Positions 18,180 through 18,884 of a stretch of 64,000 nt of DNA are shown in pieces. The notes below the pieces were generated by a model. That model searched no databases, was not told the DNA's origin, and saw only the letters and a program-made list of their open reading frames with translations. The stretch's first letter is position 1, and every line of letters begins with the position of its first letter. The DNA comes from Escherichia coli (GTDB lineage: Bacteria; Pseudomonadota; Gammaproteobacteria; Enterobacterales; Enterobacteriaceae), in NCBI RefSeq assembly GCF_016903815.1, contig NZ_CP069973.1; one strand, 5' to 3'. The position numbers and the translations under genes are program-made.

Positions 18180-18884
18180 ATGGCAAGATGTACAGCTCCT
18201 GTACGTGGACATAGCTCAGCAGCAGCTGCTGCTGCCTGTCCCGCATGTCGTAATCGCAGTGGTTATCGCCGCAGTAGCTACAGTTATGATAGTTACCCTT
18301 CTTACTCATCAGGCTCTAGCGGTGGCGGAAGTTATGGAGGCAGTAGCGGTGGTTCCAGCAGCAGCGCGAAGCCACGTTGGTCAAAATCAGGGTCTTCCGT
18401 TTCTTACACAACAGCCCAAGTACAATCACTCACACCAATTCGACAAGCGGTAGAGAAACTTGCCATTGAGCAACCTGATCTGCGTGATGTCTTTCTTTGC
18501 CATGCTTGGGATGACCGACAAGGTATTGCCAAAGAGTTACACGATTTGCTCGAAGCGGCAGGTGTCAAAGTATGGTTCAGCGAAAAGGATCTTGCCCTTG
18601 GTGTTCCGATGATGCGTGCCATTGATAAAGGATTAGCAAACTCTCGAATCGGCTTGGTTTTAGTGACACCTGCATTGTTAAACCGTCTTCCTAAAGAAGG
18701 CGTTGCTGATAAAGAACTTTCCGCCTTACTGGCAGGCAACCAACTCGTTCCCATCGTGCATAACACGACGTATGAAGCTCTCCGTAATGTCAGTCCTTTG
18801 CTTGCATCCCGAAGCGGCCTCGACACGGGAGAAGATACATTGGCAGTTGTTGCAACAAAAATTGCAGAGCTGATCACTGTTTAG
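18180..18884 (+). CDS. TIR-domain protein with N-terminal Cys/His knuckle and Ser/Gly/Tyr-rich linker
   Basis: ATG at 18180 with AAGGGGA 8 nt upstream (the track ORF starts at 18129). N-terminus MARCTAPVRGHSSAAAAAACPACRNR. Low-complexity SYSYDSYPSYSSGSSGGGSYGGSSGGSSSS. TIR core DVFLCHAWDDRQGIAKELHDLLEAAGVKVWFSEKDLALGVPMMRAIDKGLANSRIGLVLVTP...DKELSAL. Confidence 0.85.
   Translation: MARCTAPVRGHSSAAAAAACPACRNRSGYRRSSYSYDSYPSYSSGSSGGGSYGGSSGGSSSSAKPRWSKSGSSVSYTTAQVQSLTPIRQAVEKLAIEQPDLRDVFLCHAWDDRQGIAKELHDLLEAAGVKVWFSEKDLALGVPMMRAIDKGLANSRIGLVLVTPALLNRLPKEGVADKELSALLAGNQLVPIVHNTTYEALRNVSPLLASRSGLDTGEDTLAVVATKIAELITV

Follow-up and report, generated by a model that had tools for sequence, protein, structure and literature searches.

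The window analysed here, 64,000 nucleotides of Escherichia coli DNA, carries at 18180–18884 on the plus strand a gene for a 234-residue protein with a C-terminal TIR domain. The identical gene of E. coli strain 222 is annotated in RefSeq as the TIR-domain protein WP_001389195.1, and we identify it below as an orthologue of the Yersinia protein TcpYI. The reading frame runs from an ATG at 18180 to a stop codon at 18882–18884 and is preceded by a Shine-Dalgarno sequence, AAGGGG, at 18164–18169, in agreement with a sequence-only reading of this stretch that had described a 234-codon gene with a ribosome-binding site. A scan of one genome per species gave 444 confirmed loci, of which the best 80 (63–89% identity) were analysed; all counts of 81 loci or homologues refer to these 80 plus the window copy. 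Nearly all of the best 80 align over residues 1–234. Nucleotide homology with these loci from other taxa extends from 18179/18180 to the stop codon, and because it begins exactly there we place the start at 18180 and discard an in-frame ATG at 18129, which would give a protein of 251 residues. Among 5426 complete E. coli genomes the gene is found in 109 (~2%), and at least 80% of its length is matched in 108 of these.

The TIR domain occupies residues 100–234 (18477–18881, plus strand). Pfam TIR_2 (PF13676) matches residues 104–197 with a score of 57.1 bits, above its threshold of 28 (E = 3.2e-15), and the DVFLCHAWDD motif by which the domain had been recognised from the sequence opens at 18486 (D103). 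Searches of PDB sequences with phmmer and hmmsearch retrieved PdTIR, TcpB, BtTir and AbTir (E = 1e-13 to 1e-16). AlphaFold run on a shallow family alignment reached a predicted local distance difference test score (pLDDT) of 46.6; a usable model was obtained after adding PdTIR-like sequences, in which the TIR domain has a pLDDT of 70–90 and shows the alternating strands and helices of a flavodoxin-like βαβ fold. The top 21 Foldseek matches in the PDB were again TcpB/BtpA, PdTIR, BtTir and AbTir (E = 4e-10 to 7e-7; TM-score on the target 0.72–0.88; root-mean-square deviation ~2 Å), with a probability of 1.00 to many TIR structures. Plant, SARM1 and TLR TIRs scored far lower (SARM1/TIR-1 at E about 1e-4 to 1e-3), and no ThsB structure was present among the top 50. 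Of the structures that had been named beforehand as comparators, AbTir is among the closest and ThsB is not.

The best candidate for a catalytic residue is E179 (codon 18714–18716, plus strand), which lies within D-K-E-L and had already been singled out from its position. Both E179 and the adjacent K178 are invariant (81/81). When the family profile is aligned to PdTIR by hmmsearch, K178-E179-L180 stands opposite the (K/R)-E-L of WPQKELDGL, and hhalign against a PdTIR-like profile (99.7% probability) likewise pairs it with the canonical (K/R)-E-L. This pairing implies that the αC helix is shorter and that 4 residues are inserted ahead of it. From these alignments the case for E179 as the catalytic Glu, counterpart of AbTir E208, is strong but not proven. 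G141 of the BB loop is also invariant in the family, and the FxxHA motif is present alongside these two residues.

Four residues before E179, at position 175 (codon 18702–18704, plus strand; equivalence by hhalign), homologues have Val (51/81) or Ile (30/81) and never an aromatic residue (0/81). An aromatic residue at this place, W204 in AbTir, is required for the cyclisation of ADP-ribose (ADPR); TIRs with cyclase activity are all aromatic there, and those that make only ADPR or are inactive need not be (Manik et al., bioRxiv 10.1101/2022.05.07.491051). The Val or Ile at position 175 therefore predicts that the family does not generate cyclic ADPR (cADPR) isomers and consists of plain NAD+ hydrolases or of catalytically silent proteins. 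The sequence-only reading had left the choice between defence and virulence open and had overlooked the missing aromatic residue, which would favour an NAD+-hydrolysing effector over a signal generator.

The region ahead of the TIR domain is built of three parts. The protein begins MARCTAPVRGHSSAAAAAACPACRNR, and residues 1–26 (18180–18257, plus strand) form the C4-x6-H11-x8-C20-x2-C23 knuckle that had been noticed in the sequence. C4, H11, C20 and C23 are kept in 77 of the 81 homologues, which span more than 10 phyla, the exceptions being three truncated genes and one copy with x7 spacing; such conservation is far above chance, and the knuckle is a putative zinc site. Residues 27–62 (18258–18365, plus strand) form a disordered linker with 17 Ser, 9 Gly and 6 Tyr among 36 residues. 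The earlier description of ~55 residues of S/G/Y low complexity was right in kind but too generous in length, with ~36 residues pure and ~50 if the KPRWS..GSSVSYT segment is included. In homologues the linker keeps its composition but not its length or sequence (27–50 residues, 36% Ser, 22% Gly, 2–9 Tyr); acidic and aliphatic residues are almost absent, and in the window protein the AlphaFold pLDDT is below 50 over residues 28–76. The third part (18366–18470, plus strand) comprises a KPRWSxxGSSVxYT motif (residues 63–77) and a helix at residues 78–97, the only one ahead of the TIR domain in the AlphaFold model. P65, W67, S72, Y76, T77, L84, P86 and R88 are invariant in the family alignment, and the segment from 63 to 97 aligns with the pre-TIR segment of Brucella TcpB (4lzp).

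An exhaustive phmmer search of residues 1–100 against 1.84 billion cluster representatives returned 179 matches, nearly all of them fragments of the same TIR family. The few long matches that would join the module to other domains (TamB, β-propeller) look chimeric or frameshifted, and on this search the N-terminal module is exclusive to the TcpYI-type TIR family. One divergent metagenomic member, P0215 (236 residues), keeps the knuckle and a KAKWS..GSSVLYT segment and has lost FLCHAWDD and DKEL. Judged by its sequence, nature seems to have made it “catalytically dead”, so that it could inform on what the N-terminal module does alone.

The sequence-only reading had called the gene an orphan, a description that does not hold. 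A search of 5.8 billion proteins gave at least 8000 candidates, and over the analysis as a whole homologues number more than 8000, with 63–97% identity and from more than 10 phyla. The best 120 matches are all full length (76–97% identity) and come from Citrobacter, Serratia, Enterobacter, Yersinia, Pectobacterium, Proteus, Pseudomonas, Aeromonas, Chromobacterium and other genera. Among the best 80 of the 444 loci, hosts include Bacteroidota, Firmicutes, Actinobacteria, Cyanobacteria, Planctomycetota, Verrucomicrobia, Acidobacteria and many free-living Proteobacteria; across its more than 10 phyla the family resides mostly in free-living bacteria. The PADLOC model PDLC00424 (“ThsB1|ThsB”) matches the protein over positions 1–233 of 234 (E = 2.7e-128). 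No NCBIfam model is specific to the TcpYI-type TIR family, and WP_001389195 is named in no paper of the searchable literature.

A member of the family has nevertheless been published. The homologue of Y. pseudotuberculosis, P0058 (233 residues), is 81% identical to the window protein with 100% coverage. Its residues 1–92 reproduce exactly all parameters published for N-TcpYI (PeerJ 2020, PMC7646307): a molecular weight of 9.46 kDa, pI 10.15, instability index 79.08, aliphatic index 31.96, grand average of hydropathy −0.695, 3 Cys, 0 Asp and an extinction coefficient of 14440. On this match we identify P0058 as TcpYI. The two architectures are collinear, knuckle and low-complexity region included, and by this comparison the window gene is the E. 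coli orthologue of TcpYI, which makes the label of a “Tcp-like virulence factor” in the sequence-only reading literally right. What is new here is one E. coli copy of a known, annotated and previously named family. A lipoprotein, as one source names P0058, is not what the sequence describes; we reject that label because there is no hydrophobic h-region and because the residues just before C20 are often charged (E/K/R) in homologues.

The gene is under extreme purifying selection. The ratio of nonsynonymous to synonymous substitution rates (dN/dS) between the window gene and its homologues is 0.045–0.075 overall. Against a Klebsiella plasmid copy (dS 0.7) it is 0.004 in the TIR domain and 0.12 over residues 1–100; against more distant taxa, where dS is saturated, the corresponding values are 0.014–0.04 and about 0.1. 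We conclude that constraint on this gene is at a housekeeping level across phyla.

The locus belongs to a genomic island. In strain 222 the identical locus lies ~47 kb into an island bounded by tRNA-Phe (pheV), yqgA and an integrase; no tRNA is found within the 64-kb window. There the TIR gene adjoins kps capsule genes and other cargo of extraintestinal pathogenic E. coli (ExPEC), and most E. coli carriers of the gene were isolated from human urine or blood or from avian or poultry sources. The island also contains decayed genes: fragments of a type VI secretion system (T6SS), a truncated MkoA and insertion sequence (IS) debris. The TIR gene is richer in GC than the DNA upstream (47–51% versus 30–37%), as had been remarked. 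Between 16636 and 18062 the longest open reading frame (ORF) has 49 codons, which bears out the earlier statement that none of 60 or more lies within 1.5 kb upstream. The first 1 kb of this AT-rich DNA had been read as part of a gene desert, only partly rightly. The non-coding stretch from 16640 to ~17640 (0.8–1 kb) is present at 78–100% identity in 1570 of the 5426 complete E. coli genomes (29%) and on some plasmids too, is never annotated, and lies upstream of a minus-strand YagK/YfjJ gene. From this distribution we take it to be island backbone that bounds a variable cargo slot; after ~17640 other strains carry ireA, dsdCXA or other genes. A tblastn search of the AT-rich DNA upstream turned up neither a decayed gene nor the remains of an ISNCY element. 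The backbone stretch, which has no Rfam match, could hold a long leader, an RNA of a new type or a region of H-NS silencing.

On the downstream side, the nearest real gene is of YagK/YfjJ type (19308–20039, minus strand), 424 nt from the TIR gene, and the 0.4 kb that had been described as empty is so apart from two spurious ORFs, one of 85 residues from 19196 antisense to the YagK/YfjJ-type gene and one of 76 residues that runs antisense to the TIR gene at its 3′ end. A further antisense frame at 18404–18877 (minus strand, 157 residues) is longer than in synonymous shuffles of the window copy (p = 0.009) but shows no signal across the 81 loci (median p = 0.42), for which reason we judge it a by-product rather than a gene.

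Other copies travel on other elements. The full-length gene is carried by 157 plasmids, mostly conjugative plasmids of Klebsiella. In the two that were examined (L082 and L083, one from Klebsiella and one from E. coli) a transposase of the ISNCY family is encoded 160 bp upstream of it. The two genes form a 2.5-kb block (5387–7872 and 5382–7873, respectively), 92% conserved, with imperfect inverted repeats of 17 nt on its flanks. Since the block with its transposase sits between inverted repeats, the TIR gene on these two plasmids may be an insertion-sequence passenger; the 64-kb window holds no trace of this element. In Yersinia, tcpYI is cargo of an integrative and conjugative element (ICE) and is flanked by TraG, TraU and TraC genes. 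At these loci (L087–L089, 5929–8115) a 728-residue AAA_13/AAA_23 ATPase is encoded 886 bp upstream of tcpYI and may be separate cargo of a defence type.

We surveyed the neighbours of the gene by clustering all ORFs of at least 70 residues within ±10 kb over the 81 loci. Once frames that overlap the TIR gene are set aside, nine loci is the most that any family is shared by, and the homologues thus do not pair with a partner missing from the window, an outcome that had been proposed as the sign of a remnant. The commonest neighbour is a 77-residue DUF2188 protein (9/81 loci; for example L023, 9764–9997), encoded directly upstream on the same strand in seven; the window lacks it. The 141 nearest neighbours form a mixed set with housekeeping genes, integrases, transposases and scattered defence genes (three IetAS, Gabija, BstA, AbiE, PD-T7-3, PD-Lambda-1, HerA and Abi_C). 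At L079 (1239–4938) and three to four more alphaproteobacterial loci, an IetAS-type pair, a 402-residue AAA ATPase with an S8 peptidase of ~830 residues, is followed by a 72-residue ORF directly upstream of the TIR gene, which could be a composite defence island or a lineage-specific functional link. When the 52 major ORFs of the window were compared with profile models, none matched ThsA, and no such effector is annotated within 20 kb of the locus in strain 222. The earlier observation that a ThsA-like partner is lacking extends to the 80 related loci, and for this reason we agree that the system is not canonical Thoeris. We conclude that the gene is solitary cargo of mobile elements (island, ICE and conjugative plasmid) and has no partner.

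What is conserved among Enterobacterales is the unit 18055–18949, made up of ~125 nt of upstream DNA, the coding sequence and a hairpin. With unrelated flanks on both sides, this unit is a self-contained monocistronic cassette. The segment 18055–18179 (plus strand), which includes AAGGGG, is the only upstream DNA common to the plasmid copies; it matches those of Klebsiella and E. coli at ~83%, and a Pantoea copy in part. It presumably contains the promoter and 5′ untranslated region, and a simple promoter scan of its plus strand gave no match to the sigma-70 consensus. The hairpin, ATCTGGTCT-n8-AGGCCAGAT at 18921–18949 (plus strand), is kept in the plasmid copies (at L082 as an inverted repeat at 7727–7764), and similarity with them stops right after it. 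It has no clear T-run and likely marks the transcription stop and the 3′ end of the cassette. No structured RNA was matched by Rfam in 16600–19350 at E up to 1. The 28-codon ORF at 17923–18009 that had been noted upstream does exist, but it lies outside the block kept in other copies and matches no family; a survey of homologues, which had been suggested for it, thus lends it no support as a partner.

How such a protein might work can be read from its relatives. We propose a cytoplasmic, single-gene TIR enzyme of the TcpB/PdTIR/AbTir clade, whose TIR domains would have to self-associate so that, as in AbTir and SARM1, a composite active site forms around E179. The N-terminal region (the CHCC knuckle, the Tyr-rich disordered linker, the KPRWS motif and the pre-TIR helix) would govern this assembly, standing in for the coiled coil of Tcp proteins. 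Once assembled, the enzyme would convert NAD+ to ADPR and nicotinamide; no cyclic ADPR signal would be made, because the “cyclase” aromatic is replaced by Val or Ile. The enzyme would be its own effector and would therefore need no ThsA. Its most likely role would be that of a one-gene module for abortive infection or conflict between mobile elements, in which a trigger leads to NAD+ collapse in the carrier cell, and the virulence phenotype of TcpYI would then be secondary. Taken as a whole, this reading of a self-sufficient NAD+ hydrolase, gated in its assembly by its N-terminus and aborting infection or conflict through NAD+ collapse, has in our estimate about an even chance of being right. 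It draws support from the carriage of the gene on mobile elements, from the defence genes among its neighbours and the Mokosh remnant in the window, and from hosts that are mostly free-living. There is precedent for its parts. Single-gene TIR defence exists in E. coli as TIR-V, as TIR-VI and as TIR-IX (Wang et al. 2024, PMC11350192), where one short TIR protein with its native promoter suffices and the catalytic site is needed (PMC11350192). TIR NADases switched on by assembly or phase transition include the filaments of AbTir and SARM1/TIR-1.

Several points weigh against this reading. Wang et al. tried 32 TIR candidates from E. coli, and 20 of them gave no defence against their 111 phages (PMC11350192), and the TcpYI-type family was probably among the clusters they cloned, since it is present in 2% of E. 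coli genomes. The only published phenotype of the family, that of TcpYI, is survival in macrophages and spleen (PMC4810146), and phage genomes contain no full-length copy of the gene. The active site itself leaves room for doubt: an ungapped MAFFT alignment sets V175 opposite the catalytic Glu, a 4-residue ambiguity near E179, and a second near-invariant Glu, E173, lies close by. With the Trp of WxxxE missing, as in a group of TIRs that includes proteins inactive in vitro, the protein could be catalytically dead. Finally, proteins that sense fast-evolving phage proteins are not typically conserved to so extreme a degree across phyla.

The main rival explanation, which we consider unlikely, is a host-directed virulence factor of the Tcp type, released or delivered into animal cells and acting on MyD88/TLR signalling or on host NAD+, as proposed for TcpYI, TcpB and TcpC. 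TcpYI, the 81% identical orthologue, is reported to be encoded on a phe-tRNA island and to promote survival in murine macrophages and spleen (PMC4810146), and the window gene shares with it the phe-tRNA island, here next to kps capsule genes and other ExPEC cargo, in carriers isolated mostly from human urine or blood and from poultry and other birds. The protein has no signal peptide, however, the lipoprotein annotation fails, and no secretion system is linked to it in a conserved manner. Proteins 63–87% identical occur in methanotrophs, nitrite oxidisers and marine and soil Alpha- and Betaproteobacteria, as well as in Cyanobacteria, Planctomycetota, Bacteroidota, Firmicutes and Actinobacteria, with equal sequence constraint throughout. 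Among the closest structures, TcpB and PdTIR bind MyD88 (PMC4810146); because PdTIR comes from a non-pathogen and binds as well (PMC4810146), binding to MyD88 does not count as a sign of dedicated virulence. A TIR that serves its mobile element in a non-catalytic or differently catalytic way, for instance as a scaffold or regulator, as a toxin of the addiction type, or as an enzyme whose substrate is nucleic acid or something else, is in our view decidedly improbable. Such a role would suit a gene that is always mobile cargo, sits on plasmids within an ISNCY-bounded block and lacks the WxxxE tryptophan; the housekeeping-like constraint would fit a universally conserved cellular partner, and nucleic acid could be a ligand of the knuckle. 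The family nevertheless has hallmarks of NAD-cleaving TIRs in its invariant Glu, its BB-loop Gly and FxxHA, and no neighbour resembles an antitoxin, DUF2188 being upstream in only 7–9 of the 81 loci.

The end-to-end match to the PADLOC model of type I ThsB raises the question of whether the protein could be a ThsB-like sensor that signals to an effector encoded elsewhere, as Thoeris in trans or as an extra ThsB for a resident Thoeris system. Thoeris loci often hold several ThsB proteins, and lone TIRs can make a signal on infection (Yirmiya et al.); these authors took stand-alone TIRs out of their Thoeris survey. We think this highly unlikely, for the window has no ThsA-type gene, no neighbour recurs in the 81 loci, the fold is nearest AbTir and TcpB with no ThsB structure in the top 50, and many genomes and plasmids carry a member of the family regardless of Thoeris. 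With Val or Ile at the position where known cyclase TIRs are all aromatic, production of a nucleotide signal on infection is predicted to be unlikely. A decaying remnant of a two-gene system, its partner lost in the island, could be suspected from a gene that stands alone in an AT-rich non-coding stretch, on an island where decay is also seen in T6SS fragments, a truncated MkoA and IS debris. Of the 109 complete E. coli genomes with the gene, however, 108 match at least 80% of its length, and the AT-rich flank is conserved island backbone rather than a dead gene. With dN/dS as low as 0.004 and the gene solitary in every taxon examined, the remnant reading is effectively refuted, and we give it next to no weight.

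The NAD+ hydrolase reading also admits a bolder extension, which we offer as speculation with a small chance of being correct. By analogy with SARM1/TIR-1, the putative zinc knuckle and the prion-like Tyr-rich disordered region may, on a trigger, drive condensation or filamentation that switches on the NAD+ hydrolase, in a one-gene immune module found across bacteria that would read a universally conserved cellular cue and not a phage protein. Such a cue would explain the housekeeping-level conservation across more than 10 phyla, and the “virulence” of TcpYI would be a by-product. For its part, the main prediction of an effector-type NAD+ hydrolase under the control of zinc knuckle and Tyr-rich linker would, if it holds, add a mechanistically distinct one-gene TIR system, provide a bacterial model for assembly-switched TIR NADases, and call for a re-reading of the “Tcp” virulence literature. 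TcpYI, a catalogued Yersinia virulence factor, thus turns out to be a single representative of a stand-alone TIR gene that is very widespread, highly conserved and spread by islands, ICEs and conjugative plasmids in pathogens as well as in free-living bacteria. At the level of the family, the “virulence” label stands against a probable role in bacterial conflict. The frequency of the gene on conjugative plasmids of Klebsiella and E. coli (157 records) bears on phage therapy and plasmid ecology.

Elsewhere in the window, a 1074-residue ORF at 5454–8678 (minus strand), 9.5 kb from the TIR gene, represents the N-terminal two thirds of a Mokosh MkoA-like protein (PADLOC PDLC03921, E = 2.2e-188, profile positions 2–1030 of 1607) and is cut off by IS3-family DNA at 4172–5480; strain 222 has an intact 1652-residue MkoA-like gene with a 515-residue partner. 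Between a second YagK/YfjJ gene and a GTPase gene lie two convergent hypothetical genes, 21683–22522 (plus strand, 279 residues) and 22519–23520 (minus strand, 333 residues), neither of which has a Pfam or PADLOC match.

Among known systems, TcpYI is the nearest (Norenberg et al. 2013; UniProt A0A0U1QVR5). The two proteins agree in length (233 versus 234 residues), in the CHCC knuckle, the S/G/Y linker, the KPRWS motif, the TIR domain and DKEL, and their genes are both solitary cargo of a mobile element anchored at a phe-tRNA. They differ in host and carrier: the window gene belongs to ExPEC and avian pathogenic (APEC) lineages of E. coli and to a CP4-57-like pheV island adjoining kps, unlike tcpYI on its ICE with Tra genes. 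TcpC of uropathogenic E. coli CFT073 is encoded on a serU island (PMC4810146), whereas the island of the window gene is at pheV. The closest relatives in the PDB, TcpB/BtpA of Brucella, PdTIR of Paracoccus, BtTir and AbTir, are only ~28–30% identical. Like the window protein, they are stand-alone proteins with an N-terminal region and a C-terminal TIR domain, have the catalytic Glu and the BB-loop Gly, and lack an effector partner. In the alignments and models the window protein is closest to this TcpB/PdTIR/AbTir clade, yet it lacks the clade's WxxxE aromatic and its coiled coil, the latter replaced by the Cys/His knuckle and the Tyr-rich disordered linker, and it differs by the 4-residue insertion before αC and the shorter αC. 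With AbTir W204 replaced by Val or Ile in the window family, the 2′cADPR/3′cADPR cyclase activity of AbTir and BtTir is not expected.

With ThsB, the TIR sensor of Thoeris types I–IV and of newer types, the window protein shares the TIR domain, the match to the PADLOC ThsB model and a place as cargo of mobile elements or defence-rich regions. The two-gene architecture of Thoeris is absent, as there is no effector in the window or in the 80 related loci, and so is the cyclase aromatic. SARM1 and C. elegans TIR-1 are TIR NADases that act as their own effectors and are activated by higher-order assembly or phase transition, and they offer a model for how a Tyr-rich disordered region might switch the enzyme on. 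Unlike the window protein they are eukaryotic, their assembly is controlled by ARM and SAM domains, and the similarity in fold is only distant. The single-gene TIR systems of Wang et al. resemble the window gene in being lone TIR genes of the same species, each with its own upstream region and without an operon partner.

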